Below are positions 2,425-49,694 of a stretch of DNA of 64,000 bases, piece after piece (position 1 is the first letter of the stretch; each line of letters begins with the position of its first letter). Location of the stretch: positions 1,425,025 through 1,489,024 of the forward strand of contig CAWCYZ010000002.1 of NCBI GenBank assembly GCA_963799925.1, in the 5' to 3' direction. The translations under genes and the position numbers were made by a program. The stretch is from an uncultured Acidobacteriota bacterium (lineage in GTDB: Bacteria; Acidobacteriota; Thermoanaerobaculia; Multivoradales; UBA5704). Below the pieces are notes generated by a model. The model searched no databases and was not told the origin of the DNA. It was given only the letters and a program-made list of their open reading frames with translations.

Positions 2425-2430
2425 GCCGCC

Positions 2431-5711: not shown

Positions 5712-5723
5712 AATCCGCGCACC

Positions 5724-8467: not shown

Positions 8468-8484
8468 TCTCTCCTGGACCCAAC

Positions 8485-9090: not shown

Positions 9091-9114
9091 CTTTAGTTCG
9101 CGGGGGACGAAACG

Positions 9115-9672: not shown

Positions 9673-9683
9673 GGAGAGGACGC

Positions 9684-11605: not shown

Positions 11606-11637
11606 TCCCTAGGCGTCGCCGCTCTTCCGGAGGCACC

Positions 11638-15747: not shown

Positions 15748-15749
15748 TC

Positions 15750-16523
15750 GTGAAGCGCACCTCTCCGCTCGCCGTCCCGTCCGCCGCGCTCCTGGCGCTC
15801 GCGTCGCTGGCCCTGCCGCCCGCCGCCCGCGCCGACTGGCTGATCACGACCGAGGGCGGCCGGGTCGAGACCCGCGGCCCGTGGGAGGTCAAGGGCAGGC
15901 TCGTCGTCTTCGCCACCGCCGACGGGGCGCTCTCGTCGCTCCGCGTGACGCAGGTCGACCTCGAGTCGAGCCGGCGCGCCACGGCGGAGTCCCGGCAGGC
16001 GCTGGCCGAGGCCGACAGCGCGCCGCCGCCGCAGGCGCGCAAGTCGGTGCGCTCGATCACCGACAAGGACGTCGGCCACCCCGATGCGAAGCCGGCCGGG
16101 GCGCCGCCGAGCGACGCGGCCAAGCCGGCCGACGGGCCGGCGGGGGCCGCCGCCAAGCCGGCCGAAGCCGCCGGCAGGAGCCCGGTCGCGGTCGGTACCT
16201 GGCAGAAGGTCGACCGCGCGGAGAAGGACGGGGTCGACGTCGTCGGCTCGCTCGAGAACGGGAGCGGCGACCTGCAGACCGACGTCGGCATGACCGTGAC
16301 GCTGGTCGACGACGGCGGCGGCACGCTCGGCACGGCGCGCGCGGTGCTCACCGCCGACTCGATCCCCGGCAAGGGGTCGACCGACTTCAAGGCCGCGTTC
16401 CCCGGCGTCTTCACCTTCGCGCGCGCCAAGTTCGACATCCAGAGCGCCGGGCTGAAGCTCAAGATGACGCCGGGCGACCAGGGGACCGATCGCGCCGCGC
16501 CGTCGGCCGACAAGCCGAACTGA
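15750..16523 (+). CDS. secreted protein of unknown function, last gene of minor-pilin operon
   Basis: AAGGAG lies 8 nt upstream of GTG 15750. The signal peptide is [28 protein letters not shown], followed by an Ala/Pro-rich linker and a C-terminal beta-rich region. Confidence 0.6.
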
Positions 16524-16544: not shown

Positions 16545-17882
16545 CTACCGGCGATACCGCGGCACGCCGCCCAGGTCGTGCTCGTGGACTTTGCGCAGCA
16601 GCATCCGGTAGCTCCAGCCCAGGGCCTTCGCCGCCTCCCGCTTGTCGCCGTCGGCGGCGACGAGCGCCTGGCGCACCCGCTCGCGCTCGGCCGTCCCCGC
16701 CGCGGCCGGGGCGAGCGGGCGCAGCAGGGGCTTGACGTCGGCGATCCGCAGGACCGGGCCGTCGGCGAGGATCAGCGCCCGCTCGAGGACGTTGCCGAGC
16801 TCGCGCACGTTGCCCGGCCACGGCTCGGCGGCGAGGAGCGCCGCCGCCTCCTCCTCGAGGCGGGGCGGCTCGCGGCGGTGGCGGCGGGCGATGCCGGCGA
16901 GGAGGTGGCGGGCGAGGAGCGGGATGTCGCTCGCCCGCTCGCGCAGCGCCGGCAGCTCGATGGGGAAGACGTCGAGGCGGAAGAAGAGGTCGGGGCGGAA
17001 GGCGCCCTGGTCGACCATCGCCTGCAGCTCGCGGTTGGTGGCGGCGACCAGCCGCACGTCGGCGCGCAGGGTGCGCCCGCCGCCCACCCGCTCGAAGGTC
17101 CGCTCCTCGAGCACCCGCAGCACCTTGCCCTGCACGCCGAGCGACAGCTCGCCGATCTCGTCGAGCAGGAGCGTGCCGCCCAAGGCGAGCTCGAAGCGCC
17201 CCGGCTGGCGCCGGTCGGCGCCGGTGAAGGCTCCCTTCTCGTGGCCGAAGAGCTCGTTCTCCATGAGCTGCTCGGGGATCGCCGCGCAGTTGACGGCGAT
17301 GAAGGGCCCGCCGCGCCGCGTCGAGAGGGCGTGGAGGGCGCGCGCGAAGAGCTCCTTGCCGGTGCCGCTCTCGCCGGTCAGCAGCACCGTGCTCTCGGTC
17401 GGCGCCACGCGCTCGAGCAGGCGGATCGCCGCCCGCGTGCGCGGATGGCGGCCGACGATCGGCGGCGCGCCCGGCGGGGAGAAGACCTCCGCCCCGCCGC
17501 CGCCCAGCGGGTCCAGCCGCTCGCCGATGGCGCGGGCGATCAGCCGCGCCAGGTCGTCGATCTCGACCGGCTTCTCGAGGAAATCGTAGGCGCCGAGCTT
17601 CATCGCCTCGACCGCGGCGCCGACCGTGCCGTAGCCGGTCAGCACCACGACCGGCACCTGCGGCCGCGCGGCGCGGCTGGCGGCGAGCACCTCGAGCCCG
17701 GAGGCGTCGGGGAGCTTGAGATCGGTGAGCACCAGGTCGTAGGCGCGCTCGGCGAGCAGGCGCATGCCGTGCTGTCCCGCGGCCGCCGACTCGACCTCGT
17801 ACCCCTCGGCGGCGAGCGCGCGCTCGAGCATGCGGCGGAGCGAATCGCGGTCCTCGACGACCAGGATGCGGCCGTCGGTCAC
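16545..17882 (-). CDS. sigma-54-dependent response regulator (NtrC/PilR family)
   Basis: 445 aa. REC domain (ILVVEDRDS...[10 protein letters not shown]), AAA+ domain with GESGTGKE and GAFTGA, and C-terminal [22 protein letters not shown]. Confidence 0.9.
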
Positions 17883-19319
17883 CGCGCCGGCTCCGCCGGC
17901 CGCGGATCAGCGGCCAGCGCTGGCTTCGGATCAGCGGCCAGAGCCGCTTGGATCGCGGCGACCAAGGTGTCGTCGTCCTCGGGATCGACGGTGCGCAGGT
18001 CGAGGAGGAGCCGCCCCTCGCGCAGGTAGCCGACGACCGGCGGATGGGGCGGCGCGCCGCGGCGCAGGCGGGAGAGCAGCCCCGGGTCGCCGGGCAGCGC
18101 CAGCGCCTCGCCCGGGATCGGCGCCTCGGGCGCCGAGCCGCCGCCGAGGAAGGCGTCGGCGGCCACGATCCCGACGCATGCCGACGCTCCCCGCGGCGCC
18201 GAGCGCCGCCGCGGCGCGCTCGAGCCGGCGGCGGGTGACCGCCGGATCCGCCCATAGCCGGTCGATGGGGAGCGGCGCCCCGGCGAGGTGGAGCCGCAGC
18301 ACCCCCTCGAGGGCCGCCAGGGTCGTGCGGTCCGGGCGCAGCGCCCGGTAGAGCGGGTGCTTGCGGCAGCGCGCCAGGAGGTCGGCGCGGCCGACGAGGA
18401 GCCCGGCCTGGGGGCCGCCCAGGAGCTTGTCGCCGCTGCCGCAGGCGAGGTCGCAGCCGGCGGCGATGAGCGTCGAGAGGCTGGGGTGGCCGGCGAGCTG
18501 CGGCGCCGCGCTCGGGCGCAGCAGGCCGCTCCCCTCGTCGACGAGGACGGGGATGCCGACGGCGCGCCCGAGCTCGGCGAGCTCCGCCGGCTCGACCGCG
18601 GCGACGAAGCCGATCTGCCGGAAGTTGCTGGGGAAGACCTTCAGCAGGAGGGCGGTGTCCGGGCCGACCGCGGCGCGGTAGTCGGCGAGGCGCGTGCGAT
18701 TGGTCGCCCCCACCTCGACCAAACGCGCGCCGGCCGCCGCCATGATCTCGGGGATGCGGAACGAGCCGCCGATCTCGATCAGCTCGCCGCGCGAGACGAC
18801 GACCGCGCGGTCGCGGGCGAGGGCGGCGAGCGCCAGCACCAGGGCGGCGGCGTTGTTGTTGACGACGACCGCCGCGGCGGCGCCGGTCGCCGCCATCAGC
18901 AGCCGCTCGACCCGGCGGTTGCGCTCGCCGCGGCGGCCGCTCTCGCGGTCGAGCTCCAGGTCGCAGTAGGCGTCGAGGAGGGCGGGCAGGCGCCGGACGA
19001 CGGCGCGCGGCAGCGGCGCGCGCCCGAGGTTGGTGTGCAGGAAGATGCCGGTGGCGTTGAGCACCCGCGCGAGCGGCGCGCCGAATTCCGCCTCGAGGGC
19101 GGCGGCGATGCGCTGCGGCAGGCGGCCGAGGGCGCCCTCGACCTCCGCGGCGGCGGGCCCGGAGCGCAGCCAGGCGCGCAGGGCCGCGAGCTCCCGCCGC
19201 GCTTGGACCCTCACGGGACCGCGCCCGTATAATGCAAGGAGATCGGCGACCGCGGGGTCGCTCAACAGACGATCGACCGCAGGGATCGCGCGACGGGCGT
19301 CGTGGGATTCGGGTTCCAT
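17879..19319 (-). pseudogene. selA: L-seryl-tRNA(Sec) selenium transferase SelA, apparent single frameshift near 18167-18185
   Basis: N-terminus [19 protein letters not shown]. Motifs [18 protein letters not shown] and [13 protein letters not shown] are present. The C-terminal part ([16 protein letters not shown]...[17 protein letters not shown]) continues in another frame (track ORF 17879-18166). Confidence 0.75.
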
Positions 19320-19347
19320 CAGAGCGTCGAGCCATTGTAGGAGATTC

Positions 19348-20028
19348 GTGGACGCCAAGCGAAACACGGGAGCGCCGGGCCAGGCCGGGCCGCGCGGCGG
19401 ATTCGGCGCCGGCCCGGCCGGCTACGCCGGCGGGCCGCCGGCCGCGCCCTCCAAGCGGGCGGCCGCGGCGCCCGCGGCCACCCCGCGCGGCGTCGGCGTC
19501 CAGGAGGGGCTCGACCAGCTCGGCAGGAGCATCCAGCAGCTCCGCATCGACTTCGAGCGCTTCTTCAACGGCGCCCTCCCGGTGCCGCCCGAGGAGCTGC
19601 GCAACCGCATCGTGGTGCAGCTGCGGCAGCTCCGCAACGCCAACCTGACGGCAGCGGTCGACAACTTCCGCCTGAGCGACCTCGAAGCCCGCTTCAACAC
19701 CTACAGCGAGCTGTTCAACCGGCGCCTGCGCGAGCGCGAGGAGGGCCGCTCCATGAGCCACGCCGCCGCCGACCTGGCGGCGCCGCGCTACGACGTCGAG
19801 AAGGGCATCCTGGTCGCCGACGCGGTCGAGCCGGCGGCGGCGGCGGCGCTCTACTCCGGCCTCGCGGAGGGCGCCGGCGAGGCGCCCAGGTTCGACCTCC
19901 ACAGCTTCCAGACCTACATCGAGCGCCAGGCGGCGGCGATCCGCGCGCGGACCGGCTGCGCCCAGGTGCAGTTTCGCCTCGCCGACGAGGACGGCAAGCT
20001 CAAGCTGAAGGCCCGTCCCGTCGCATGA
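19348..20028 (+). CDS. conserved hypothetical protein (Gly/Ala/Pro-rich N-terminus, helical C-terminal domain)
   Basis: AGGAG lies 5 nt upstream of GTG 19348, 226 aa. Third-position G+C is high by inspection (not computed). No motif I can name. Confidence 0.55.
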
Positions 20029-27354: not shown

Positions 27355-27497
27355 GCCCCGGGGATCTCGGCGGGCAAACCGAATCGCTGCTTGGACTTGG
27401 CTTTCCTTGACACGCGGCGGGGGGGTGCGGCAAGCTGACGCCGCTTTGTCATCAGGGTTGCAGAGATAGTTCATCGCTCGCCACCTGAGGAGGGGGC

Positions 27498-27830
27498 ATG
27501 AGAGAAAAAGATCGAGAGCTGAGGCGCCGGCGCCAGCGCCGCATCAAGCGCCTGAAGAAACGCAGCCAGGAGGCGGCGCAGCACAAGCCCGAGCGCCTGC
27601 AGGCCTCGAAGCGGCCGGTGAAGAAGCCGCCCGCCGAAGGGGAGCCGCAGGGCACCGCCGAGGCGGGAGGCGGCGCCGCGGGGGACGAGCCGAAGAAGAA
27701 GCCGGCCGCCAAGAAGCCGGCCGCCGAGGGCGCGGCGAAGAAGCCGGCGGCGAAGAAGGCGGCGCCCAAGAAGCCCGAGGCGGCCGCCGAGACGGCGGGC
27801 GGGACGGCGGAAAAGGAGCCGGAAGGCTGA
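27498..27830 (+). CDS. small highly basic Lys/Ala/Pro-repeat protein (histone H1-like)
   Basis: GAGGAGGGGG SD precedes the ATG, 110 aa. The Arg/Lys-rich N-terminus is RELRRRRQRRIKRLKKR, with KKPAAKK-type repeats in the C-terminal half. Confidence 0.65.
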   Translation: MREKDRELRRRRQRRIKRLKKRSQEAAQHKPERLQASKRPVKKPPAEGEPQGTAEAGGGAAGDEPKKKPAAKKPAAEGAAKKPAAKKAAPKKPEAAAETAGGTAEKEPEG

Positions 27831-27915
27831 CCGCGGCCCGCTCACGTTCGGCTCGGCCTTTGGCGTAGGTGATCGGCTGGTACGGATGATGCGGATCTAG
27901 CGAAGAGGGGGTGAC

Positions 27916-29169
27916 ATGCCGGACTACCGATCGCTCAAAGCCGTCGATCCCGAGGTGTACCAGGCCATCGCCGACGAGCGCGGGCGCCAGAACCGCGGCC
28001 TCGAGCTGATCGCCTCGGAGAACTTCGTCAGCCGCGCCGTGCTGGAGGCGGCGGGCAGCGTCCTCACCAACAAGTACGCCGAGGGCTACCCCGGCCGGCG
28101 CTACTACGGCGGCTGCGAGTTCGTCGACGTCGTCGAGCGGCTGGCGATCGAGCGCGCCAAGGCTCTCTTCGGCGCGGCGCACGTCAACGTCCAACCCCAC
28201 AGCGGCACCTCCGCCAACATGGCGGTCTACTTCGCCATGCTGAAGCCCGGCGACAAGCTGATGGGGATGGACCTCTCCTGCGGCGGCCACCTCACCCATG
28301 GCCACCGGCTCTCCTACTCCGGCCGCGACTTCCAGGTCGTCGCCTACGGCGTCGACCGGGCGAGCGAGCAGATCGACTACGACGAGGTCGAGCGCATCGC
28401 CCTCGCCGAGCGGCCGAAGCTGATCATCTGCGGCGCCTCCGCCTACAGCCGGGTGATCGACTTCGCGCGCTTCCGCGCCATCGCCGACCGCGCCGGCGCC
28501 CTGCTGATGGCCGACATCGCGCACATCGCCGGGCTGGTCGTCGCCGGGCTCCACCCTTCGCCCGTGCCGCACTGCCAGTTCGTCACCACCACCACCCACA
28601 AGACGCTGCGCGGGCCCCGCGCCGGCATGGTGATGTGCGAGGAGGCCTACGCCAAGGAGATCGACCGCGCGGTCTTTCCCGGCATCCAGGGCGGGCCGCT
28701 GATGCACATCGTCGCCGCCAAGGCGGTGGCGCTCCTGGAGGCCGCGAGCGAGGAGTTCCGCGCCTACCAGCGGCAGATCGTGGCGAACGCCCGGGCGCTG
28801 GCCGCCCGGCTGACGGCCGAGGGCTTCCGCGTGGTCTCGGGCGGCACCGACAACCACGTCTTCCTCCTCGACGTCTCGGCCGCCGGCCTGACCGGCAAGG
28901 TGGCGGAGAAGGCGCTCGAGGCGGCGAGCATCACGGTCAACAAGAACACCATCCCCTACGATCCCAACCCGCCCCTCGTCGCCTCCGGCGTGCGCATCGG
29001 CACCCCGGCCCTGACCAGCCGCGACATGCGCGAGCCGGAGATGGACCTCGTGGGCGGCCTGATCGCCGAGGTGCTCCGCGCCCCCGAGGACGCGGCCGTC
29101 CACGCCTCCGTAGAGGGCCGCGTGCGCGATCTCGCCGAGCGCTTCCCCCTCTACGACGCCCTGATGTAG
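27916..29169 (+). CDS. glyA: serine hydroxymethyltransferase
   Basis: 417 aa. Contains [23 protein letters not shown] and the PLP lysine context [12 protein letters not shown]. Confidence 0.95.
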
Positions 29170-29197
29170 CCGGGCCTGACGGCCCTTCCGCCAAGGG

Positions 29198-29226
29198 TTT
29201 ACAGAAAAACAGAAGCAAAGGATACT
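29198..29226 (+). promoter_or_regulatory. candidate sigma-70 promoter upstream of sulfotransferase pair 1
   Basis: TTTACA, a 17-nt spacer, then GATACT, inside the only AT-rich island between glyA and 29263. Confidence 0.4.
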
Positions 29227-29262
29227 CGCCGTCTTGCCGGCGCTTCCTGTAGAGGATGGCCG

Positions 29263-30201
29263 GTGGCGAGGACGCGCGTGAAGAGACGGTCCATCCGCTG
29301 GATGAAGACGAAGCTGTGGCTCGTCGGGCTGCTGCGGAGCGGCTACGACCCGCTCTATCAGACGCTGCGCTTCTGGGCGATGCGGCGCTTCGTCTACGAT
29401 CCGCGGCCGGACGACATCTTCGTCGTCAGCTACCCCAAGTCGGGGACGACGCTGATGCAGATGATCCTCTATCAGCTCACCACGGGCGGCGAGGGCGATC
29501 TCGACCGCATCCCCCACCTCGACGCGGTCTCGCCCTGGTTCGAGTTCGATCTCGACCTCGACTCCGGTCCGTTCCTCGCCGCCCTCCCCTCGCCGCGCGT
29601 CTTCAAGAGTCACTTCCGGCGCTTCTGGCTGCCCAGGAACGGTCGCTTCATCTACCTCGTCCGCGATATCCGCGACGTCGCTCTGTCGGCCTACCACCAC
29701 TTCGCCCTGGTCGCCGGCCGCGAGGTCGAGCTCGATCCGTTCGTCGACGCCTTCCTGCGCGGCCACCCGATGTTCGCGGGCTCCTGGCGCGGGCATCTCC
29801 GCTCCTGGTGGCCGCACCGCAACGACCCCAACGTCCTCTTCGTCGCCTATGGCGACATGGTCGCCGATCTCGCGGGCACGGTCCGCAAGGTCGCCGCCTT
29901 CTGCGGCCTCGCGGTGCCGGAGCCCGCGATGCCGCGCCTCCTCGAGCGCTGCGGAATCGCCGCCATGAGGGCGCACGACGAGAAGCTCGATCCGCGTCTC
30001 CACAGGACGGTGGCGATGGACCGTGGCTTTCTCGGCCGCGGCGCGCCCGGGGCGGGCCGCCGCGAGCTCTCCCCGCGCCAGCGGCGGCGGCTGGCCGAGC
30101 GGGTCACCGCCCTCGCCCGCGAGCTCGACCGGCCGCCCGGCGAGCGGCACGCGCGGCTGATCCGGCCCGACGCCGGACCCGCCGGGCCGGAGATCGGATA
30201 G
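29263..30201 (+). CDS. Sulfotransfer_1-type (cytosolic-like, PAPS-dependent) sulfotransferase, copy 1
   Basis: 312 aa. 5'-PSB loop SYPKSGTTLMQ, catalytic-His context VFKSHF, 3'-PB VRDIRDVALSAYHH, C-terminal GRGAPGAGRRELS. Confidence 0.85.
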   Translation: MARTRVKRRSIRWMKTKLWLVGLLRSGYDPLYQTLRFWAMRRFVYDPRPDDIFVVSYPKSGTTLMQMILYQLTTGGEGDLDRIPHLDAVSPWFEFDLDLDSGPFLAALPSPRVFKSHFRRFWLPRNGRFIYLVRDIRDVALSAYHHFALVAGREVELDPFVDAFLRGHPMFAGSWRGHLRSWWPHRNDPNVLFVAYGDMVADLAGTVRKVAAFCGLAVPEPAMPRLLERCGIAAMRAHDEKLDPRLHRTVAMDRGFLGRGAPGAGRRELSPRQRRRLAERVTALARELDRPPGERHARLIRPDAGPAGPEIG

Positions 30202-31101
30202 ATGGCGGCGACCGGAGGCCTCACCTGGCGCGCGGTCCGGGCGACGATGGCCGCCCTCGGCGCTCTCGACCGGAGCGGCGAGCGAGCCTTCACCGGGCTG
30301 CGGCAGGATCTCGCGCTCGCCAGCCAGCTGCGGCCGCGGCCGGACGATCTCTATCTCGTCGGCTTTCCGCGCTCGGGCCTCAGCCTCCTCCAGATGGCGC
30401 TCCACCAGCTCACGACCGACGGCGAGATGAGCTTCGTCCATATCGCGAGCGTCTCGCCGACGCTCGAGAACGAGGTGGTGAGGGCGGGGAGGCGCTACCT
30501 CGAGCAGATCCCCCCGCCGCGCGTCTTCAAGAGCCATCTCCTCTACGCGCGCCTGCCGCGCCCCGGCCGCGTCGTCTATCTGGCGCGCGACCTGGGAGAC
30601 GTCGCCGTCTCGGCCTACCACTACTGCGCCCTCCTCGCCGGCCGCGAGCTCGACCTCGACGACTTCCTCCGCCGCTTCGTCGCGGGCCATCCGAGGCTCG
30701 GTGGCGTCACCTGGTTCGAGCACCTGCGGTCGTGGTGGCCGCATCGCGGCGATCCGGATGTCCTCTTCCTCGACTACGACGAGGTCGTGGCGGACCTCGC
30801 CGGCACGCTCCGCCGCCTCGCCGGCTTCTGCGGCCTGGCGCTCGACGCGCGCGAGCTGCCGCGGATGGTCGAGCGCTGCGGCTTCGCTTTCATGCGCCGC
30901 CACGAGGCCCGTTTCGACCCCCGGCGGCGTCACCTGAGCGGGCGGGTGGGGAGCTTCGTCCGCAAAGGGGAGCCGGGGGGCGGCAAGGCCGAGCTCTCGG
31001 CTCGCCACCGGGAGCGGATGGCGAGCGAGGCCGCCAGGCTCGGCAGGGCGCTCGGCTGCCGGCCCGGCGATCCCCACGCCGGGATCTTCACCCTCGACTA
31101 G
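30202..31101 (+). CDS. Sulfotransfer_1-type sulfotransferase, copy 2 (variant PSB loop)
   Basis: 299 aa. The ATG abuts the copy-1 stop. Contains GFPRSGLSLLQ, VFKSHL, ARDLGDVAVSAYHY and VRKGEPGGGKAELS. Confidence 0.8.
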   Translation: MAATGGLTWRAVRATMAALGALDRSGERAFTGLRQDLALASQLRPRPDDLYLVGFPRSGLSLLQMALHQLTTDGEMSFVHIASVSPTLENEVVRAGRRYLEQIPPPRVFKSHLLYARLPRPGRVVYLARDLGDVAVSAYHYCALLAGRELDLDDFLRRFVAGHPRLGGVTWFEHLRSWWPHRGDPDVLFLDYDEVVADLAGTLRRLAGFCGLALDARELPRMVERCGFAFMRRHEARFDPRRRHLSGRVGSFVRKGEPGGGKAELSARHRERMASEAARLGRALGCRPGDPHAGIFTLD

Positions 31102-32461
31102 CTCGCGAGACCGCCGGGTCCGGTGCGCATCGCCGCCGCCGCCTCGGGGACGCCGAAGCGCTCCCGTAAGCGCCGCCGCACCTCGCCGAGGAGGAAGATC
31201 GAGCCGCAGGCGACGAGGGTGTCGCCGCCCAGCGCCAGCGCCCGGTCGAGCGCCGCCGCTGGATCGGGCTCGATGAGCGAGAGAATGGTCGCCGGCAGGA
31301 GGGCGGCGAGCTCGGCGGGGGGCGCGCCCGCGGGCTCTCCGGTGTCGTGAGGACCGCGCGGCCGACGAACGGGGAGAGGATGCCGAGGATGGCGGCGGCG
31401 TCCTTGTCGGCGAGGACGCCGAAGAGGAGGTCGACCGGGCGGTCCGGACGCCGGAGACCGGCGAGGAAGTCGGCGAGCACGGCGGCGCCGCCGGCGTTGT
31501 GGGCGGCATCGAGCAGCACGCGGCGGCCATCGGGGAGGGCCACCGCCTCGAGCCGCCCCGGCCAGCGGCAGGCGGCGGCGCCGCGGGCGATCGCCGCGGC
31601 GTCCAGGCGCGCGAAGCCGAGGTCGGCGAGCCGCTCGGCGGCGAGGACGGCGAGCGCCAGGTTCTTCGCCTGATGCCCCCCCAGGAGGGCGGTGGCGAGC
31701 TCGTAGCGGCGGATGCCGTCCGTCCGCCCCGCGGCCGGGCAGGTGGCGAGTGCGACCGCCTGTCCCTCCAAACCGCGCGGCACCACCGCCTCGATCCGCG
31801 CCCGCTCCGGCCCCCAGGCGAGATCGGCCCCCAGCTCGGCCGCCGCGCGGCCCACCGCCGCCGCCGCCTCGGCGTCCTCGATCCAGGCGATCGCCGGTCG
31901 GCCGGCGCGCAGGATCCCCGCCTTCTCGGCGGCGATCAGGGCGAGCGTCGCGCCCAGGTGCTCGGTATGGTCGAGGCTGATCGGAGTGATGAGCGAGAGG
32001 AGGGGATCGGCGACGTTCGTCGCGTCGAGCCGCCCGCCCATCCCCACCTCGAGGACCGCCAGATCGACCCGCTCCTCGGCGAACCAGAGGAAGGCCGCCA
32101 GGGTGAGCGCCTCGAAGTAGGTCGGCCGTCCTTCGGGCTCGCCGCCGCCCGCGGCGACCACCCGCTCGAGGAGGCCGCCCAGCCGCTCCGGCTCGATCGC
32201 CCGGCCGTCGATGCGGAGGCGCTCCTCGACCGCCTCGAGGTGCGGCGAGGTGTAGAGGCCGGTGCGATACCCCGCCGCGCCCGCCATGGCGGCGAGGAGT
32301 GCCGAGGTCGAGCCCTTGCCGTTGCTCCCCGCGACGAGCACCGCCGGCAGCCCCTTCTCCGGCGCCCCGAGCGCCGCCAGCAGCCGCCGCGGGCGGTCGA
32401 GCCCGAGCCGGATGCCGAAGACCTCGAGGCTGCGGAGCAGCTCCTGATAACTGTCGTGCAC
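31098..32461 (-). pseudogene. folC: folylpolyglutamate synthase/dihydrofolate synthase FolC, frameshift in a G6/C6 homopolymer at 31317-31322
   Basis: Contains VAGSNGKGSTSALLA, YTSPHL, EVGMGGRLDATNV and IAAEKAGIL. After TTPESPRARPP the C-terminus (AELAALLPATILSLIEPD...ACGSIFLLGEV) continues in another frame. The start is ambiguous (GTG 32461 or ATG 32536). Confidence 0.8.
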
Positions 32462-32465
32462 AAAC

Positions 32466-32494
32466 TTTACAGCATATTGATGTTCGTCTACGTT
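32466..32494 (+). promoter_or_regulatory. candidate sigma-70 promoter upstream of sulfotransferase pair 2
   Basis: TTTACA, a 17-nt spacer, then TACGTT, in an AT-rich island. The -35 hexamer is the same as at 29198. Confidence 0.35.
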
Positions 32495-32528
32495 TTGTTG
32501 CCGTCGGCGATGAAGCCGCGGCGTCGAG

Positions 32529-33437
32529 GTGACCATGAAAGCGAAGCGATTGTACCTGCAGGCAATGAGCCGGGCGCTCCCGGTGCTCTCCTCGGCGGGC
32601 TACCTGGCGGTCCAATGGCTCACCGGCCGGCTCGCCCGGCGGGTCCACTACGTGCCGCGCCCGGACGACATCTTCATCGTGAGCTATCCCAAGTCGGGCA
32701 CGACCCTCCTCCAGATGATGCTCTACCAGATGACGACCGACGGCGATCTCGACTTCCCCCACATCGACTCGGTGTCTCCCTGGTTCGAGGCCGCCCTCCG
32801 GATGGGCGCCGGCCGCCACTTCGAGGAGCTCCCCTCGCCGCGCGTCTTCAAGAGCCACCTCACCCGCGCCGGGCTGCCGCGGGCCGGCCGCTTCCTCTAC
32901 ATCGCCCGCGACCTGCCCGACGTCGCCCTCTCGGCGTATCACCACCTATGCCTGATGAGCGGTCGCGACGTCGAGCTCGGACCGTTCGCGGCCCGCTTCC
33001 TGCGCCGCAGCCAGATCGCCGGCACGACCTGGTTCCGGCACCTCCGGTCGTGGTGGCCGCACCGCGACGATCCCAACGTCCTCTTCCTGCTCTACGACGA
33101 GGTGGTGGGCGACCTCGCCGGCACGGTCCGCCGGATCGCCGACTTCTGCGGCCTCGAGGTCGACGAGCGGGAGCTGCCGCGCATCGTCGAGCGCTGCGGG
33201 ATCGAGCTCATGAAGCGCCACAACGAAAAGTTCGATCCCCGTCTCCACTGGATCGGCCGGCGCGCGCCGGAGTTCATCCGCGAGGGGCGGCCGGGCGCCG
33301 GGAGGCGGGACCTGCCGGCCGCGGCCAAGTCCCGCCTCCTCGCCGAGCTGGACCGCCTGGCCCGCGACCTGGGAGAGGATCCCGCCGATCCTCACGCGGC
33401 GCCGCTCTTGGCGGGGGGAGCTGCGCCGTGCCGGTGA
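32529..33437 (+). CDS. Sulfotransfer_1-type sulfotransferase, copy 3
   Basis: 302 aa. Contains SYPKSGTTLLQ, VFKSHL, ARDLPDVALSAYHH and IREGRPGAGRRDLP. The start could be ATG 32535. Confidence 0.85.
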   Translation: MTMKAKRLYLQAMSRALPVLSSAGYLAVQWLTGRLARRVHYVPRPDDIFIVSYPKSGTTLLQMMLYQMTTDGDLDFPHIDSVSPWFEAALRMGAGRHFEELPSPRVFKSHLTRAGLPRAGRFLYIARDLPDVALSAYHHLCLMSGRDVELGPFAARFLRRSQIAGTTWFRHLRSWWPHRDDPNVLFLLYDEVVGDLAGTVRRIADFCGLEVDERELPRIVERCGIELMKRHNEKFDPRLHWIGRRAPEFIREGRPGAGRRDLPAAAKSRLLAELDRLARDLGEDPADPHAAPLLAGGAAPCR

Positions 33438-34345
33438 CGCGACGCCTGCTCTCCTGGCTCGAGAGGCGGGGCGACGGCTGGATGTCCAAGCACCTGGAGC
33501 GCCAGATCCGCCTCGGCCTCGAGCTCCAGTTCGCGCCGCGCGCCGACGACGTCTTCATCGCCAGCTACCCGCGGTCGGGAGCGACGCTGGTGCAGATGAT
33601 GCTCCTCCAGCTCACCGGTTCCGGCGAGCTCGATTTCATCCACGTCGCCAGCCGCTCGCCGGTCCTCGAGCTCGAGCTCGTCCGGAACAGCGCGAGGTTC
33701 CTCGAGTCCCTCCCCGCGCCGCGCCTCCTCAAGACCTTTCGCCGCCGCGAGTCGCTGCCGCGCATCGGCCGGTTCCTCTACATCGCGCGCGACCTGCTCG
33801 ACGTGGCGGTGTCGGCCTATCACCACGCCTCGCTCCTCGCCGGCCACGAGCTCGAGCTCGACGAGTTCCTGCGCCGCTTCCCCGCCGGCCATGTGCGCCT
33901 CAGCTGCTCGTGGTTCGACCACCTTCGCTCCTGGTGGCCCCATCGCGCCGATCCCGACGTCCTGTTCCTCGAGTACGACGACGTGGTCTCCGATCCCGCC
34001 CGCGCCCTGCGCCGGATCGCCGGGTTCTGCGGCTTCGGGCTCGACGAGAGGGAGGTGCCGCGCATGCTCGAGCGCTGCACCATCGACCGCATGAAGCGGC
34101 AGGCGGCGAAGTTCGACCCGCGGCTGCGGCGGCTGAGCCCGCGGCCGGTCTCCTTCATTCGCCGCGGCGAGAACGGCGCCGGCCGCCGCGAGCTGCCGCC
34201 GGAGCAGCGGCGGCTCTACGCCGCGCGGCTCGCGGCCTTCGCCCGCCAGCTCGGCTGCGGTCCCGAGGAGCCCCTGTATCGTCTCCTGGTCGCGAAGGAC
34301 GAGGCGCTCTCGGAAGATCGGCAGGGGGCATCCCTGGGCCCTTAG
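33428..34345 (+). CDS. Sulfotransfer_1-type paralog, copy 4 (catalytic His replaced)
   Basis: GTG 33428 overlaps the copy-3 end by 10 nt (alternative start ATG 33482). Contains SYPRSGATLVQ, LLKTFRR (Phe where the other copies have His), ARDLLDVAVSAYHH and IRRGENGAGRRELP. Confidence 0.8.
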   Translation: MPVTRRLLSWLERRGDGWMSKHLERQIRLGLELQFAPRADDVFIASYPRSGATLVQMMLLQLTGSGELDFIHVASRSPVLELELVRNSARFLESLPAPRLLKTFRRRESLPRIGRFLYIARDLLDVAVSAYHHASLLAGHELELDEFLRRFPAGHVRLSCSWFDHLRSWWPHRADPDVLFLEYDDVVSDPARALRRIAGFCGFGLDEREVPRMLERCTIDRMKRQAAKFDPRLRRLSPRPVSFIRRGENGAGRRELPPEQRRLYAARLAAFARQLGCGPEEPLYRLLVAKDEALSEDRQGASLGP

Positions 34346-34416
34346 CGGCAGGGAAGGGGACTTGAGGGGTAGCGGGATGAGGGGCGGGCGGCGCCGGCTC
34401 GCGACGCGGCGCTATC

Positions 34417-35262
34417 TCAAGACAGGTGCTTCAGGCAGCGGGCGAGCGTCGCCTTCATCTCGGCGCGCGGCACGACCAGGTCGAGGAATCCGTGGTCGAG
34501 GAGGAACTCGCTGCGCTGGGAGCCCTCGGGCAGGCTCTGGCGGATCGTCTGCTCGATGACGCGGGGGCCGGCGAAGCTGATGAGCGCGCCGGGCTCGGCG
34601 AGGTTCAGGTCTCCCAGCATGGCGAAGGAGGCCGTCACGCCGCCGGTCGTCGGATCGGTCAGGACCGACAGGTAGGGAACGCGGGCGTCGCGCAGCCGCG
34701 ACAGGGCCGCCGAGATCTTCGCCATCTGCATCAGCGAGAGCACGCCCTCCTGCATGCGCGCCCCGCCCGAGGCGGAGACCACGACGAGGGGGATCTCCTT
34801 CTCCTTCGCCCGCTCGGCGGCGCGGGTGATCTTCTCGCCCACCACCGAGCCCATCGAGCCGCCCATGAAGCGGTATTCCATCACCGCCAGGATGATCGGG
34901 ATGCCTTCGATCCGCCCGGCGACGACGACGACCGCATCCCTTTCGCCCACCGCCTGCTGATAGCTCCGCAGCCGGTCGCGGTAGCGCTTGGTGTCGCGGA
35001 AGTTGAGCGGGTCGGTCGGCGAGATGCCGCTGAAGAGCTGGCGCGGCTCGGCCTCGTCGAGCAGGAGGGCGATCCGCGCATGGGCGTCGATCCGGAAGTG
35101 GTGGTCGCACTTCGGGCAGACGCGCAGGTTGCGATCGAGGTCGCGCGAGTAGATGATCTCCTTGCAGCTCTCGCACTTGACCCACAGCCCCTCGGGGACC
35201 GTGCTGCGCGGCCGGTCCACCCGGATCGGTTTGGGCTGCTTGGCTTTCCTGAACCAGGCCAT
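34417..35262 (-). CDS. accD: acetyl-CoA carboxylase carboxyltransferase beta subunit
   Basis: 281 aa. Zn-ribbon CESCKEIIYSRDLDRNLRVCPKCDHHFR, followed by the carboxyltransferase domain. Confidence 0.95.
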   Translation of the reverse strand: MAWFRKAKQPKPIRVDRPRSTVPEGLWVKCESCKEIIYSRDLDRNLRVCPKCDHHFRIDAHARIALLLDEAEPRQLFSGISPTDPLNFRDTKRYRDRLRSYQQAVGERDAVVVVAGRIEGIPIILAVMEYRFMGGSMGSVVGEKITRAAERAKEKEIPLVVVSASGGARMQEGVLSLMQMAKISAALSRLRDARVPYLSVLTDPTTGGVTASFAMLGDLNLAEPGALISFAGPRVIEQTIRQSLPEGSQRSEFLLDHGFLDLVVPRAEMKATLARCLKHLS

Positions 35263-35385
35263 GGGGAATCTGCCGGTCGGGCGGTTGGCTTCCTCCGGAG
35301 TTCGATCCCCTGGGTGAGAGCCGGCGTGAGCCGGATGCCGACCTCGAGGGGCGGCTGCCTGGCCGCGAGCTACGGGGAGACAGGA

Positions 35386-35622
35386 TCAGACCTCGGCGGA
35401 GCTGTGCCCTTCCTCGGCTTCGAGGTCGTTGGGGACGCCGAGGCGCATGCAGGCGGCGTCATACATCTGGCGGGAGGCCTTCTTGGCGTTCTGCAGCTCG
35501 GCGAGCCGGTCCTTGACCTTGGCCAGCTCCTCTTCGATCAGCCGGTCGAGCTCCTCCATGTCCTGCTTGGCCAGCTCGAGAGTGTGCTCGTAGGACTTCC
35601 TCTGCTGATCGGTCAGGCTCAT
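35386..35622 (-). CDS. small coiled-coil protein of unknown function
   Basis: 78 aa from ATG 35622 (MSLTDQQRKSYEHTLELAKQDMEELDRLIEEELAKVKDRLAELQ). The longer track ORF start adds non-coding-looking sequence. Confidence 0.5.
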   Translation of the reverse strand: MSLTDQQRKSYEHTLELAKQDMEELDRLIEEELAKVKDRLAELQNAKKASRQMYDAACMRLGVPNDLEAEEGHSSAEV

Positions 35623-35693: not shown

Positions 35694-36536
35694 TCATGGC
35701 TTGAACGGGATCTTCAGCTTGGTCCACATCTTGACCTTGACGCCGCCTTGGGTCGCCGGTTTGAACACCGCGGTTCGAGCCGCGCCCAGAGCGGCCTCGT
35801 TGATGCCGACGTTCTGCTTGACCGACTGTGAAAGTTTCGCGCTCTCGACGTGACCGCTGTCGTCGACGAGGACGGACACGATCACGACGCCTTCGATCCT
35901 CAGGCGTCTAGCGAGCGCAGGATACTCCGGTTTGGAAAAGCTGACAAGTTGCGGCCAGACGACGTCTGGGCCCTCCTCGACCAGGTCGCCGGCGCGGACG
36001 GCGGGAGGCGCGTGCGACGGTCTGGGCTCGGCAGCGGGGGGCGCCGCCGAGGGTGCCGGCAGAGGCGGCGCCTCGGCGCGGGCTTCCTTGCTCTCGCGCG
36101 GGGCGGGCGGCTCGCTCGCCTGCGCGGGCGGCGGCGGGACGGCCGCCGCGCTGACGGCTGGCACCGGAGCCGGCGGGGTGGCCGTGGCGCTCGCCGGCAC
36201 CGCGGCCGCCGGCTTGGCCGACGCCGCCTTGGTCGCGGCGAGCTCCTTCTCGAGCCGCTTCTGCTGGTCCTCGAACTTCTTGCGCAGATCGCCCTCGCGC
36301 TTGGCGAGCTCCTGGTCGACGAGGCCGTTGACGTCGATCTTGGCGTGGCCCGCGGGTGCCGGCGCGGGGGCCGGCGGGGTGGCGGCCGCCGCGGCCGGTG
36401 CGGGCGGCTGCGCGGTGGGAGGGGCGCTCGCCGCCGGCGCCGGTGGCGGCGGGGCCGCGGCGCCGCGCTTCGAGCGCGCCACGAGGAAATAGGTCAGCAG
36501 GGCGAGGACGACCAGGGCGGCGGCGATCGCCGCCAC
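35694..36536 (-). CDS. TM helix + Pro/Ala-rich spacer + TonB C-terminal domain (separate gene or frameshifted C-terminus of the kinase upstream)
   Basis: TM helix VAAIAAALVVLALLTYFLV, a long APPPP-type spacer, and the TonB_C pattern PEYPALARRLRIEGVVIVSVLVDDSGHVESAKL...VKVKMWTKLKIPFKP. Confidence 0.7.
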   Translation of the reverse strand: MAAIAAALVVLALLTYFLVARSKRGAAAPPPPAPAASAPPTAQPPAPAAAAATPPAPAPAPAGHAKIDVNGLVDQELAKREGDLRKKFEDQQKRLEKELAATKAASAKPAAAVPASATATPPAPVPAVSAAAVPPPPAQASEPPAPRESKEARAEAPPLPAPSAAPPAAEPRPSHAPPAVRAGDLVEEGPDVVWPQLVSFSKPEYPALARRLRIEGVVIVSVLVDDSGHVESAKLSQSVKQNVGINEAALGAARTAVFKPATQGGVKVKMWTKLKIPFKP

Positions 36537-36589
36537 GAGGAGCGACCGCCCGCGGCGCTCGCCCTCCTCGCCGAGGACCGCCGCCGAGC

Positions 36590-38751
36590 GGCGGGATCGG
36601 CGCCAGCGGCGCGGTCGGCGCGGCGGGCGCCGGCGCGTATTCGTCCGGCGGTGGCTCGGGTGGCGGGGGCGCGGCGGGCTCGGCCGCCGGCTGCGCCGCC
36701 GGAGCGGCGGCGACCGCGGCCGCCGTGGTCGCCGCCACCAAGGGATCGTCCGCCTGGAAGAGGCGGTGGAGGTAGGCGGCGAGGTCCGTGGGACCGGGGG
36801 TGGGCTTGAGGCCGTAGAGCACCGACTCGAGCCGGCTCTGCATCTCGCCGGCGCTGGCGAAGCGCTGATCCGGCTCGCGGGCGAGCGCCCGGCGGACGAT
36901 CTCGTCGACCTCGGGCGGCACCGCGGGCGAGATCTCGCGCGCCGTGCGGGTGCGGCCGTCGCGCACCGCCTCGAGGACCGAGATCTCGCTGCCGCCGGGG
37001 AAGAGGCGCTCGCCGGTCAGCATCTCGAAGAGGATGGCGCCGAGCGAGAAGATGTCGGAGCGCGAGTCGACGGGCTTGCCCCAGGCCTGCTCGGGCGACA
37101 TGTACTGGAGCTTTCCCTTCAGCGCGCCCATCTGCGTCTGGCTCGCCTTGGTGACCGCCTTGGCGATTCCGAAGTCGCAGAGCTTGATGTCGCCCTCGAA
37201 GGTGATGAGCACGTTCTGCGGCGAGACGTCGCGGTGGACGAGGCCGAGCTCGCGGCCCTCGAAGTCGCGCTTGCGGTGGGCGTAGTCGAGGGCGGAGGCC
37301 AAGCGCGAGGCGACGAGGAGCGCGAGGCCGAGCGGCAGCGGCAGGCTCTTCTTGCGCGCCGCGTTCATGATCGAGCGCAGGTCCTTGCCCTCGACGTACT
37401 CCATGGCGATGTAGTAGTCGCGCCCGATCTTCCCCAGGTCGTAGATATGGATGATGTTGGGGTGGGAGAGCTGGGCGGCGAGCTTCGCCTCGTCGATGAA
37501 CATCCCGATGAACTCGGAGTTGTCGGTGAGATGGGGCAGGATCTTCTTGATGGCGACCGTCTTCTGGAATCCCTCGACGCCGCGCATGCGCGCCTTCCAC
37601 ACCTCGGCCATGCCGCCGGCCGCGACCTTCTCCTGGAGCGTGTACTGGCCGAAGCGCTCGCCCGGCTGCTGCCCTCCGGCGGCGACGGGGATCTGCTGTG
37701 TCGCCATCGGCGCGTCGACGCGCTGTGGCGGCGGGGGCGGAGCCACCGTGCGCACCGGCGCCTGGGGGGCGGTGCGCGGTGGCGCGGGCGGGGGGGCGGG
37801 CGACGCGGGAGCTGGACCGGCCGGAGCCTGCGGCTTCGCCGGTGCCGGTGCCGGCGCGGCGGCCGGTTCCGGCCGCCGCCGCGGCCGGGCCAGCTCCTCG
37901 AGCTCCGAGAAGCCGAGATCGGCGGCCGTCTTCGGGGGCTTGCGCGCCTCGGCGCCCGCGGCTCCCGCCGCCGCGGGCGCCGGCACGGTGGCCGCCGCCG
38001 GGCTCGCGGCGGGCGGCGGCGGTGCCGGGCGGGGCGTTGACGCGGCGGGCGTGGTCGCCCCCGCGGCCTTGCCCGTCGCCCCGAGGCCGGAGAGCGTCTT
38101 GCTGATCAGGGCGTCGAGGTCGTCCCCCTTTGCGTCGGAGCGCTTGGGCGGCGCGGCGGAAGCCGCGGGCTTCGCCTTCGCCGAGGCACCGAGGCCGAAG
38201 ACGCCGGAGAGGGTCTGCTCGAGCTTGCGGTTGATCTCCTCCTCGCGGCGGGTGGCCGCCGCCTGGGCGGCGGTCGGCGCCGGTGGGGCCGCCGGCGCCG
38301 CGACCTCCTTCTCGACCTCGGCCAGCATGTCGCCGAAGATGTCGCGCGAGGTGAGCTTGGGCTCGTCGGTGGTCGGCGGCGGCGGCGGGGCGGCGGCGGC
38401 GCGGCGAGCGGCCAAGGCGCGTCGCACGACGAGCCGCAGCTCCTGCTCGGTGAACGGCTTGGCGAGCAGCTCGTCGGCCTCGATCCCGCCGACCCCTGCC
38501 TGGGCGGCGTTCTCGGCGAGGAGCGCGATGACGCCGGGGCCGCCGGCGCTACGCGAGAACGAGCTCGCGACCGCCTCGACACCCGGGATGTCGGCGCTCA
38601 CCAGCACCAGGTCGGGAGCCTCCGAAGCCCCCGCCCGCAGCGCCTCCGCCTGGCTTCCCACGACCCGCGTCTTCCAGCCCTCGGCGCCGAGCGCGTCGTT
38701 GATCCGCTCGATATAGCGACGTTCCTGCTCGACGACGAGAATCGACGGCAT
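36590..38751 (-). CDS. receiver-like domain + Ser/Thr protein kinase (3' end undetermined)
   Basis: AGGAG SD. The N-terminal REC-like region is SILVVEQE...DLVLVSADIPG...LAKPF. Hanks kinase motifs are VAIKKI, HRDVSPQNVL, DFGIAK and YMSPEQ. The reading frame stays open to 35908, but the composition becomes Arg-rich junk after about 36600. Confidence 0.85.
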
Positions 38752-47674: not shown

Positions 47675-49694
47675 GTGCGTCGTGAAGAGGAGGGACCGGG
47701 AGCGAAAGAGGAGGGAGGGGTCCTGTCTTCGAGCTGCGCTCGTCCAGCGGGTGCGAGTCCCGCCCCGGTAAGCGCCGGAGCGCCGGGTAGCAGGCCCCCG
47801 GAGCGAGGGGAGACCTTCGAGTCCGAAGCGGGGCGTCGAAGAGCCTCTACGGAGGGAGCAAGAACGCGGGCCGCAACATGAAGTGAAGCCTGCAGCCTCG
47901 ACAGATATACAAGGGGAAGCCGAGCCGCTCATGTCACGGCGAAGGCCACGTCCGTCGCGCAGAGGTCCGGAGGAGAAAGCGCGGCGGGTTCCTCCGGGGT
48001 ATGGGGAGCAGCACGCGTTCAAGGAGGAGCACGGAACACGAGAGACCCGTCTGCGCGGCCCTTGTCGGGGCAAGGCGACTCGTATAAGCCGAAGGCGAAG
48101 TCGAGCGTTGCGCAGCGGGAGTCCGAGGGGGTCGTAGTACCGTCGATGGGCGGTGAAGAACAACGCCGCCGGAGGGAAGGGCCCCTGCGGTGGTCATGGC
48201 AGCGGCGGAGGTAAGCGTGAGGGCATGGCCGGCAAGCCCGGTCCCAACCACCCCGCGAGGCGCGAGTCTCGCGACAAAGTGCGACAACTCCAACGCAGTC
48301 TGTGTGCGGCGGCCAAGCGGCAGCCGGGTCGGCGCTTCCACGCCTTGTATGGACCGCATCCACCGGAGTGACGTCCTGTGGGAGGCGTGGAGACGGGTAC
48401 GGCGCAACCGCGGAGCGGCTGGAGTCGATAGCCAGACGCTTCTGGCGGTAGAGCAGAGCGGAGTCGAGGTCTTCCTGGAAGAGCTCGGCGCCGAGCTGCG
48501 AGCAGGCGAGTATCGACCGCGGGCGGTCCTGCGGCGGTACATCCCGAAGGGGGACGGCAAGCAGCGACCGCTGGGGATCCCGACGGTGCGGGACCGGGTG
48601 GTCCAGATGGCGGCGAAGCTGGTGTTGGAGCCGATCTTCGAGGCGGACTTTCGTCCGAGCTCGTACGGCTATCGGCCCCGGCGCAGCGCGACGGATGCCC
48701 TGGAGACCCTGCGCAAGCTGGGCGCTCAAGGGTACAACCACGTGCTGGACGCCGACATCCGGGACTACTTCGGGAGCATCGACCACGAGAAGCTGATGCA
48801 GCTGGTGGAGCGGCGCATCTCGGATCGGCGGGTGCTGAAGTTGCTGCGGCAATGGCTACGGGCAGGAGTGATGGAGGAGGGCGAGGTGACGGCGACGTTG
48901 TCGCGGCACCCCGCAGGGGGGCGTGATCTCGCCCCTGCTGTCGAACCTCTACCTGCACGTGCTCGACACGGTGTGGGAGCGGCGGTGCGCCGCATCTGGG
49001 CGTGCTGGTGCGGTACGTGGACGATTTCGTCGTCGCGTGCCGCACGCGAGGGGCGTGCGAGCAGGCCGAGCGGAGGGTTTCTGAAATCCTCGGCCGGCTC
49101 GAGCCTGAGCCTGCATCCGGAGAAAACGAGGAAGGTGGAGCTATCCCGCGGTCAGGGAGGCTTCGACTTTCTCGGCTGTCACCTGCGCAAGCGCATGAGC
49201 GGTCGGATCTGGGAGAAGGAAGGCCGCAGGGTCTACTTCCTCCACCGCTGGCCGTCGCAGCGCAGCATGAAGCGGGTGCGGCAGCGGATCAAGGAGCTGA
49301 CGCCACGGGGGCGTTGTCACGAGGATCTTCGGCGGGTCATCGCCGCGGTCAACCCCGTGCTCCGTGGCTGGGGCAACTACTTCCGCACCGGAAATGCTGC
49401 GGATAAGCTGAACTCGATCGACCGGTACGTGGAACGGCGACTGAAGCGTACTGCGAGTGCAGCGTGCCGGTCGCAACCTGCGGGCCGGGCAGTTCGAGAG
49501 GTGGCACCGCGGCTATCTCGAAGCCCTCGGTTTAGTCCGTCTGCGCGGCACCATCCAGTACCCGGAGGCTGCGTAATGCCATCGCACGAGAGACCACCGG
49601 TAAGCCGTGTGCCGGAAATCGGCACGCACGGTTTGAAAGGGGGTCTTGACACCCAACCCGGCGGCCTGCCGCCAGGGAAAGTGTAAGGATCTAC
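47675..49694 (+). mobile_element. bacterial group II intron (about 2.0 kb) with internal RT/maturase ORF
   Basis: The 5' end is GTGCG at 47675. Domain V at 49602-49634 is AAGCCGUGUGCCGGAAAUCGGCACGCACGGUUU, with the AGC triad, GAAA loop and AC bulge. A long domain VI helix spans 49642-49691 with unpaired A residues. The 3' end ...CUAC at 49694 is estimated, +/-10 nt. Confidence 0.85.
48225..49576 (+). pseudogene. group II intron reverse transcriptase/maturase, at least 5 frameshifts
   Basis: RT0-RT7 and X-domain sequence is spread over three frames: [27 protein letters not shown] / [25 protein letters not shown]...[10 protein letters not shown] / [21 protein letters not shown] / [10 protein letters not shown] / [11 protein letters not shown]...GWGNYFR / [27 protein letters not shown]. 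No HNH/En domain is present. Confidence 0.85.

Follow-up and report, generated by a model that had tools for sequence, protein, structure and literature searches.

Two coupled sulfotransferase gene pairs around folC in an uncultured Acidobacteriota bacterium suggest modules of an enzyme and a degenerate partner

This analysis concerns four paralogous sulfotransferase genes, ST1 to ST4, located in a 64,000-nucleotide stretch of DNA (the window; G+C content about 72%) from an uncultured Acidobacteriota bacterium (assembly GCA_963799925.1, contig CAWCYZ010000002.1, positions 1,425,025 to 1,489,024). Close relatives carry the labels Acidobacteriota or Thermoanaerobaculia. The genes form two pairs, ST1-ST2 and ST3-ST4, on either side of an antisense folC gene. 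In both pairs, as an initial annotation of this DNA had described, a gene encoding the 5'-phosphosulfate-binding (PSB) loop PKSGTT (K-type) is followed by one encoding a PRSG loop (R-type). The pair was found to be the unit that was duplicated, and on balance we lean towards regarding each pair as an enzyme together with a non-catalytic or degenerate partner. The features of the locus are given below, with positions counted within the window.

27916-29169, plus strand: glyA (serine hydroxymethyltransferase; PF00464, E = 1.5e-165), conserved upstream neighbour of ST1-ST2
29198-29226, plus strand: promoter-like site 5' of ST1, TTTACA-17-GATACT
29263-30201, plus strand: ST1, K-type canonical sulfotransferase resembling cytosolic sulfotransferases (SULTs); alternative start GTG 29278
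30202-31101, plus strand: ST2, R-type partner, beginning directly after the ST1 stop without a change of frame
31098-32462, minus strand: folC (folylpolyglutamate/dihydrofolate synthase; probable start), with Mur_ligase_M and Mur_ligase_C matches, convergent with ST2
32463-32534: AT-rich spacer of 72 nt between the probable folC start and ST3, with a TTTACA box at 32466-32471, promoter-like for ST3-ST4
32535-33437, plus strand: ST3, K-type canonical sulfotransferase, paralogue of ST1; more likely start, initially annotated from GTG 32529
33428-34345, plus strand: ST4, R-type partner without the catalytic base; its start overlaps the ST3 stop
34417-35262, minus strand: accD (acetyl-CoA carboxylase carboxyltransferase beta), with Zn_ribbon_ACC and Carboxyl_trans matches

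The four plus-strand open reading frames (ORFs) lie where the initial annotation had placed them, as does accD, which is on the same strand as folC. The zero spacing claimed for ST1 and ST2 was also found: the ST2 ATG at 30202, which has a GGAG upstream, comes immediately after the ST1 stop TAG (30199-30201) with no shift of frame. The claimed overlap of ST3 and ST4 is likewise present, and amounts to 10 or 4 nt depending on the choice of start: the ST3 stop is TGA 33435-33437, and ST4 begins at GTG 33428, which has a GGAG 7 nt upstream, or at GTG 33434 in a GTGA overlap. For ST3 itself, ATG 32535 is more likely the start than GTG 32529, since a GAGG lies 6 nt upstream and the 300 aa of the public annotation fit. 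ST1 may start at GTG 29278, because the public annotation of 307 aa and the N-termini of orthologues agree with this position.

All four proteins matched the Pfam family Sulfotransfer_1 (PF00685) strongly, with E-values of 2.5e-40 (ST1), 4.4e-33 (ST2), 5.7e-37 (ST3) and 1.6e-35 (ST4) and scores of 138.9, 115.2, 127.9 and 123.2 bits, against a gathering cut-off of 22. The nearest solved proteins are animal cytosolic SULTs (SULT3A1, SULT1A1/1A2, SULT1E1 and SULT4A1; E 1e-27 to 1e-30), the best PDB match of ST1 being mouse SULT3A1 (7v1o, E = 9e-28). The bacterial StaL was found only as a weak PDB match (E = 4e-6). None of the four proteins matched NCBIfam, and PADLOC returned none of them, so that neither a curated name nor a known defence system was assigned.

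All four proteins had been described as carrying the PSB loop, the 3'-phosphate-binding (3'-PB) motif and the C-terminal motif of enzymes that use 3'-phosphoadenosine 5'-phosphosulfate (PAPS). The last two were recovered in every copy: the 3'-PB motif RDxxDVAxSAYHH (RD..DVALSAYHH in ST1), with the variant SAYHY in ST2, and the C-terminal RxGxxGxG(R/K) (GRG..GAGRR in ST1). The 3'-phosphate-binding arginine and serine and the C-terminal R-x-G are invariant in the window copies and kept in nearly all relatives. The part of the description that did not stand is the PSB loop, which is YPKSGTT in ST1 and ST3 and degenerate in ST2 (FPRSGLS) and ST4 (YPRSGAT). At the site of the catalytic histidine, ST1, ST2 and ST3 read KSH and ST4 reads KTF, with Phe104 encoded at 33737-33739.

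The relationship between the copies was examined in a neighbour-joining tree of 61 sequences (window copies, genes of syntenic relatives and outgroups; 100 bootstraps). The sequences fell into four positional clades, each recovered in 100 of 100 replicates. ST2 grouped with ST4 in 100/100 replicates and ST1 with ST3 in 63/100, and the neighbours, ST1 with ST2 or ST3 with ST4, grouped in 0/100. The gene pair was thus the duplicated unit, as had been proposed. Because neighbours never group and positional equivalents do, the history runs from a single gene to a tandem K-type/R-type pair and from there, by duplication of the whole pair, to the present four genes. Inside the ST1 and ST2 clades the branching order is identical, and the two subtrees are thus congruent. 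Pairwise identity is 57.6% for ST1-ST3, 57.1% for ST2-ST4 and 50-53% for the remaining combinations.

The positional clades differ in their active-site residues. PKSGTT and K(S/T)H are invariant in the ST1 and ST3 clades. The ST2 clade shows PRSGL(S/A/T) and retains the catalytic histidine; ST2 is only partly degenerate. The ST4 clade shows PRSG(A/G)T, and in all seven members the catalytic histidine is replaced by phenylalanine or leucine, which therefore closes the standard mechanism to ST4. In an alignment with human SULT1A1/1A2, PAPRLLKTF of ST4 falls on PAPRLLKTH (His108) and YPRSGAT on YPKSGTT (Lys48). The catalytic histidine is absent from only 10 of 257 single-domain relatives, 6 of which belong to the ST4 clade. 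An arginine in the PSB loop (PRSGTT) is common in other, presumably active, related clades; its combination with leucine, alanine or glycine for the first threonine of GTT is essentially confined to the downstream partner clades. Three further proteins, P0145 (encoded on a 1.2-kb contig), P0221 and P0248, also lack the catalytic histidine, with R-I-F, G-E-R and G-A-N at the Lys/Thr/His positions, and may be independent pseudo-sulfotransferases.

The AlphaFold2 (AF2) model of ST4 reached a mean predicted local distance difference test score (pLDDT) of 90.4 and a predicted template modelling score (pTM) of 0.88. Its top fold matches were SULT1E1, SULT1A1 and SULT2A1 (TM 0.70-0.78), and an N-terminal helix of about 33 residues was predicted. 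According to this model, ST4 is a well-folded protein that lacks the catalytic base and probably retains nucleotide binding. The partner genes are intact ORFs with ratios of nonsynonymous to synonymous substitution rates (dN/dS) of 0.35-0.67, and the sulfotransferase genes are 59-74% identical across genomes in which glyA is 89-94% identical. Within the ST4 clade, where dN/dS is 0.54-0.67, an essential residue has been lost, the ORFs have remained intact and the genes appear to be retained under selection, a combination that would class its members as pseudoenzymes. Genes of the ST4 type should not carry an annotation as active sulfotransferases.

The order and coupling of the two genes are conserved too. 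In all pairs seen the K-type gene precedes the R-type gene, and the spacing varies between an overlap of 10 nt and a gap of 4 nt; among relatives we found overlaps of 4 nt (L001 and L085) and 1 nt (L083 and L086) and a gap of 4 nt (L081). In L002, the ST1 and ST2 types form a single ORF of 613 aa. The same fusion is present in L091, which comes from an independent metagenome, has 92% nucleotide identity and shows in-frame linker indels, and again in the library protein P0138. Given these three independent sequences, the fusion is real and maintained. Proteins with two SULT domains were also seen in further bacterial lineages (P0140 and P0142).

These observations bear on an alternative, namely that the window encodes four independent sulfotransferases, each modifying a different position or substrate in the manner of Teg12/13/14, with the tight spacing reflecting co-expression only. 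The conserved 3'-PB residues and C-terminal motif of all four proteins, the histidine of ST2 and the frequency of the PSB-loop arginine in related clades are compatible with this explanation, as is a tandem of sulfotransferase genes that follows a non-ribosomal peptide synthetase (NRPS) gene in L087. However, the catalytic histidine is missing throughout the ST4 clade, the replacement of the loop threonine by leucine, alanine or glycine is essentially found only in downstream pair members, and the ST1-ST2 fusion argues for joint action. We therefore regard four independent enzymes as a rather unlikely, if serious, alternative.

The second pair differs from the first in its distribution. The flanking gene order of the window (PmbA/TldD, pccB, a small ORF, glyA, ST1, ST2, folC, accD and a kinase-like gene) is also found in L001 and L081, and yebC and ruvC were additionally seen in L001 (3.08-Mb contig). 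Neither of these relatives has ST3-ST4, and accD and folC are separated by 42 nt in L001 and 18 nt in L081. In E. coli K-12 the two genes are also adjacent and co-oriented, 69 nt apart. The initial annotation was thus correct in stating that ST3-ST4 splits an accD-folC linkage. Orthologues of ST3 and ST4 lie at the folC 5' end in the window, in L006, which belongs to the same metagenome-assembled genome as L002, and in L085, where another ST3-like copy comes after them. Their identity to the window copies is 57-65%, a divergence similar to that of the ST1/ST2 orthologues, and the insertion is therefore not recent.

L086, which contains the closest relative of ST1 (74%), has a porin-like gene after folC, as L006 does, but no ST3-ST4. 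Its positions 4481-4660 align with the folC 5' end, the TTTACA box and the ST3 start of L006, and positions 4654-4875 align with the final codons of L006 ST4 and the start of the porin gene. When L086 4638-4760 was compared with L006 1050-2800, the first approximately 25 codons of ST3 were found joined to the last approximately 13 codons of ST4, and the two parts meet within a pair of short sequences that resemble each other. This junction is the deletion scar of an ST3-ST4 pair. ST3-ST4 is accordingly an accessory module tied to the folC 5' end that was gained once or rarely and lost repeatedly.

No clear homology was found between the accD-side spacer of the window and the accD-folC spacers of L001 and L081, which leaves the right-hand insertion boundary undefined. 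When the surroundings of ST3-ST4 were searched for inverted repeats and target-site duplications, only similarity between the paralogues came up. Insertion as a mobile element or genomic island was considered and rejected, there being no adjacent recombinase, no flanking repeats and a G+C content (0.70-0.72) like that of the surroundings. In L083 (3421-11963) and L092, three tandem tyrosine recombinase genes and two HTH-TPR genes lie between ST2 and folC; this block looks like a mobile element in the convergent ST2/folC gap and indicates that the area tolerates insertions.

Gain and loss of this kind could also be expected if the R-type genes were decaying, functionless duplicates in a birth-and-death family of paralogues near folC. 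The genes evolve fast compared with glyA, at dN/dS values of up to 0.67, ST3-ST4 has been deleted in L086 and is absent from L001 and L081, and L085 carries the extra ST3-like copy. On the other side, no genome seen has a broken R-type ORF, the fold motifs of these genes are conserved and the ST4 model is confident. The R-type clades are also as old as the K-type clades, the trees are congruent, and the fusion is maintained in diverged sequences. Decay is consequently an improbable explanation in our judgement.

Each module looks like a transcription unit of its own, given a conserved promoter-like site 5' of ST1 and a conserved box 5' of ST3. The site at 29198-29226 is the sole sigma-70-like match in 27400-35400, and the sequence upstream of ST1, CTTTACAG...GGATACTCGCC, is conserved in L001, L081 and L086; the site can be written CTTTACAG-N-GGATACT. 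Upstream of ST3, the window shares with L006 and L085 a conserved AACTTTACA, which includes the TTTACA box and in L006 lies upstream of the sole possible folC start.

Little in the neighbourhood points to a substrate. When some 48 ORFs from the whole 64-kb window were annotated with Pfam, they included type IV pilus genes, a sigma-54 activator, selA, ychF, PmbA/TldD, pccB, glyA, folC, accD, a kinase gene, yebC, ruvC, ftsEX, gatB, a group II intron and a UbiA-domain protein. Among these ORFs there was no adenosine 5'-phosphosulfate (APS) kinase, ATP sulfurylase or CysD/N, and no glycosyltransferase, polyketide synthase (PKS), NRPS or other acceptor pathway was found near the sulfotransferase genes; the absence of nearby PAPS-synthesis and acceptor genes had already been reported in the initial annotation. 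A natural-product tailoring cluster at the locus was rejected, the neighbours being glyA, folC, accD, pccB, the kinase gene, yebC and ruvC.

The position between glyA and folC raises the possibility that the modules are tied to folate or one-carbon metabolism, for instance by sulfating a pterin or folate-related compound. The order glyA-ST1-ST2-folC is conserved in at least seven related contigs, the glyA-ST1-ST2 arrangement being seen in L001, L081, L083, L084, L086, L002 and L091, and ST3-ST4 always lies at the folC 5' end. Nevertheless, the whole of this housekeeping region is syntenic only among close relatives, and more distant family members (among L003-L012 and others) have neither glyA nor folC nearby. 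In addition, ST1 has its own conserved promoter-like site, and mobile DNA separates ST2 from folC in L083. We know of no sulfated folate pathway. The folate-gene neighbourhood is probably incidental, judging from these comparisons, and we consider a metabolic link to folate highly improbable.

Other contexts were found for relatives with about 50% identity. In L087 (1-8879), a PKSGTT gene and then a PRSGTT gene come directly after an NRPS gene (>3956 aa), overlapping it by 4 nt, in what is likely a sulfated non-ribosomal peptide cluster. In L088 (8001-16061), a relative lies beside a LytTR two-component system, an ATP-binding cassette exporter and a YcaO/nitroreductase/ThiF-like set, which may constitute a cluster for a sulfated ribosomally synthesised and post-translationally modified peptide, and in L089 a relative stands alone. 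The NRPS-linked, YcaO-linked and lone contexts fit a family of small-molecule tailoring enzymes. The relatives in L087 and L088, at about 50% identity, are not orthologues of the window genes, so that the same genes were not found within a known sulfated-metabolite pathway. A weak hint at a membrane-associated substrate comes from the N-termini: the first 35-45 residues are basic and amphipathic in the window proteins (net charge +10 in ST1) and form a long helix in the ST4 model, and the N-termini of the NRPS-linked relatives are hydrophobic enough for a membrane anchor.

Taken together, the degenerate partner, the loss of the histidine in ST4, the fusion and the deletion scar shift the interpretation from four sulfotransferases to enzyme/partner modules, which we regard as the best explanation. 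Specifically, and with slightly more confidence than doubt, we propose that the locus holds two copies of a lineage-specific module in which a canonical PAPS-dependent SULT-type enzyme and a non-catalytic or degenerate partner form a hetero-oligomer. ST1 and ST3 would be the canonical PAPS-dependent sulfotransferases, each translationally coupled to its divergent paralogue, ST2 or ST4, which keeps the fold and the 3'-phosphate-binding residues but has a degenerate 5'-phosphosulfate loop. The products would most likely assemble as a SULT dimer with one catalytic subunit, the degenerate subunit acting as a structural, substrate-presenting or regulatory partner, and the complex would sulfate a small or membrane-associated molecule. 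A single gene gave rise to the tandem K-type/R-type pair, whose duplication placed a second pair with its own promoter-like region between accD and folC; since then, some relatives have retained this second pair and others have lost it by deletion.

Several results weigh against the proposal of enzyme/partner modules. Heterodimer modelling did not yield direct evidence for a complex: the AF2 model of concatenated ST1+ST2, made with no alignment, was unusable (pLDDT 37, pTM 0.26), and MAFFT assigned every single-domain homologue to the same half of the fusion, leaving no balanced alignment for a heterodimer model. The dN/dS values are fairly high, indicating moderate constraint, and ST3-ST4 is dispensable in some relatives. 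ST2 keeps its catalytic histidine and an arginine at the position of Lys48 is common in presumably active PRSGTT relatives; ST2 could therefore be an independent enzyme. Finally, with no donor-synthesis or acceptor genes nearby, the biochemical role is derived from homology alone.

Cytosolic-SULT-type sulfotransferases are treated as homodimers of identical active subunits, and the animal cytosolic SULTs are dimers. The window proteins resemble the animal enzymes (SULT1A1, SULT1E1, SULT2A1 and SULT3A1) in their fold and length of about 300 aa, and ST1 and ST3 share their PAPS motifs. In contrast to the animal SULTs, they are encoded by bacterial genes in coupled heterologous pairs, with one partner that has a degenerate PSB loop or lacks the catalytic histidine, and the ST4 model has the N-terminal helix of about 33 residues. 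The KTVE dimer motif is not clearly kept in the window proteins when judged by eye, and its residues are not clearly complementary between partners. The natural-product sets Teg12/13/14 and StaL also have paralogous PAPS-type sulfotransferase genes side by side, and each paralogue in these known tandem tailoring sets is an active enzyme. The window genes differ from these sets in that they have no biosynthetic cluster around them and that ST4 lacks a catalytic base.

A parallel in principle is offered by the trypanosomatid 'prozymes', enzyme/pseudoenzyme heteromers of S-adenosylmethionine decarboxylase (AdoMetDC), deoxyhypusine synthase and PRMT1 (PMC3663545 and PMC5201418). In both cases a dead or impaired paralogue is retained beside the active enzyme and, in the window, is probably bound to it. 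The 'prozymes' belong to other enzyme families and another domain of life, and for the window proteins complex formation and activation are a proposal. BtSULT of Bacteroides and other SULTs of gut bacteria are bacterial PAPS-dependent small-molecule sulfotransferases; BtSULT is placed in the Pfam family Sulfotransfer_3 and described as a single enzyme (PMC13449962). The window genes differ in having Sulfotransfer_1 as their best match and in forming K-type/R-type pairs.

A bolder form of the proposal, which we hold to be plausible yet short of an even chance, is that the module represents a first obligate heteromeric sulfotransferase. A SULT would be activated, stabilised or directed to its substrate by a dedicated non-catalytic paralogue (a bacterial 'prozyme'), the arrangement being hard-wired by fusion in one lineage and serving to make a sulfated metabolite or lipid in soil Acidobacteriota. 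More generally, a conserved, coupled and sometimes fused pair of an active and a degenerate subunit would extend the principle of an enzyme with a dead paralogue to the SULT family and to bacteria, and would make available a natural system for half-site behaviour in SULT dimers. The locus also hints at a sulfated product, as yet uncharacterised, in a soil phylum that has received little study. It is an experimentally tractable variant of a known enzyme kind and does not amount to a new type of system.

The R-type clades have very few members. A word-indexed search of 5.8 billion proteins returned about a dozen clusters, a scan of metagenome contigs six close loci, and a library of 1.84 billion representatives four representatives (P0138, P0123, P0127 and P0126). 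A literature search found no paper on pseudoenzyme partners of sulfotransferases, nor any on sulfotransferases of Thermoanaerobaculia.

With regard to folC, the reading frame and both ends had to be revised. The N-terminal 400 aa and the C-terminal 70 aa are encoded in separate frames, owing to a 1-nt frameshift within 31300-31330. With FolC from L001 as tblastn query, the frame changes at ...SPRARPP|AELAAL, at about 31316 in a C6 run. The second frame runs to the true C-terminus (...GEVRRRLRERFGVPEAAAAM), with a stop at 31098-31100 that shares CTAG with the ST2 stop. Of the overlaps initially claimed at both ends of folC, the one on the ST2 side was therefore found, at 2 nt rather than 14, and the divergent one on the ST3 side is probably an artefact of choosing the longest ORF. 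A folC start at ATG 32536 would overlap ST3. In L006, however, the conserved stretch is immediately preceded by an in-frame TAA, so that folC can begin there only at the GTG equivalent to window position 32462, which makes a divergent folC/ST3 overlap doubtful. On this comparison, folC probably starts at GTG 32462, leaving the 72-nt spacer before ST3.

Other genes in the window are also broken. The selenocysteine synthase gene selA (minus strand, 17882-19421) consists of two overlapping ORFs (17934-19421 and 17882-18166) and is a single gene in L081. A receiver-Ser/Thr kinase ORF overlaps a TonB_C ORF (35694-38751, minus strand), and the two correspond to one 1057-aa protein in L001. As selA and kinase-TonB_C are split here and intact in relatives, the frameshifts in these genes and in folC are most likely assembly errors. 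The PmbA/TldD pair at 22.9-25.0 kb also appears broken, and indel errors seem frequent in this assembly, which carries frameshifts in essential genes.

Several further features were observed in the window. Between pccB and glyA lies a Lys/Ala/Pro-rich ORF of 110 aa (27498-27830, plus strand) that had no match in Pfam or NCBIfam and whose position is conserved in L001 and L081. A type IV pilus cluster at 1852-16523 comprises several N-methyl pilins, a prepilin peptidase, PilX and a 1369-aa PilY1-like protein; at 3-8 kb it reaches 78-79% G+C and includes an 855-aa YfhO-like membrane protein and an unannotated 669-aa ORF. Just beyond gatB, a group II intron was identified at 47745-49686 on the plus strand (Rfam matches to D1-D4 at 47745-47881 and to domain V/VI at 49600-49662), with its reverse transcriptase/maturase ORF at 48190-49686. 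Next to the intron, the minus-strand segment 49961-52303 encodes a 780-aa protein with a C-terminal UbiA prenyltransferase domain; its G+C content is about 60%, compared with 72% for the genome, and it may be foreign DNA.

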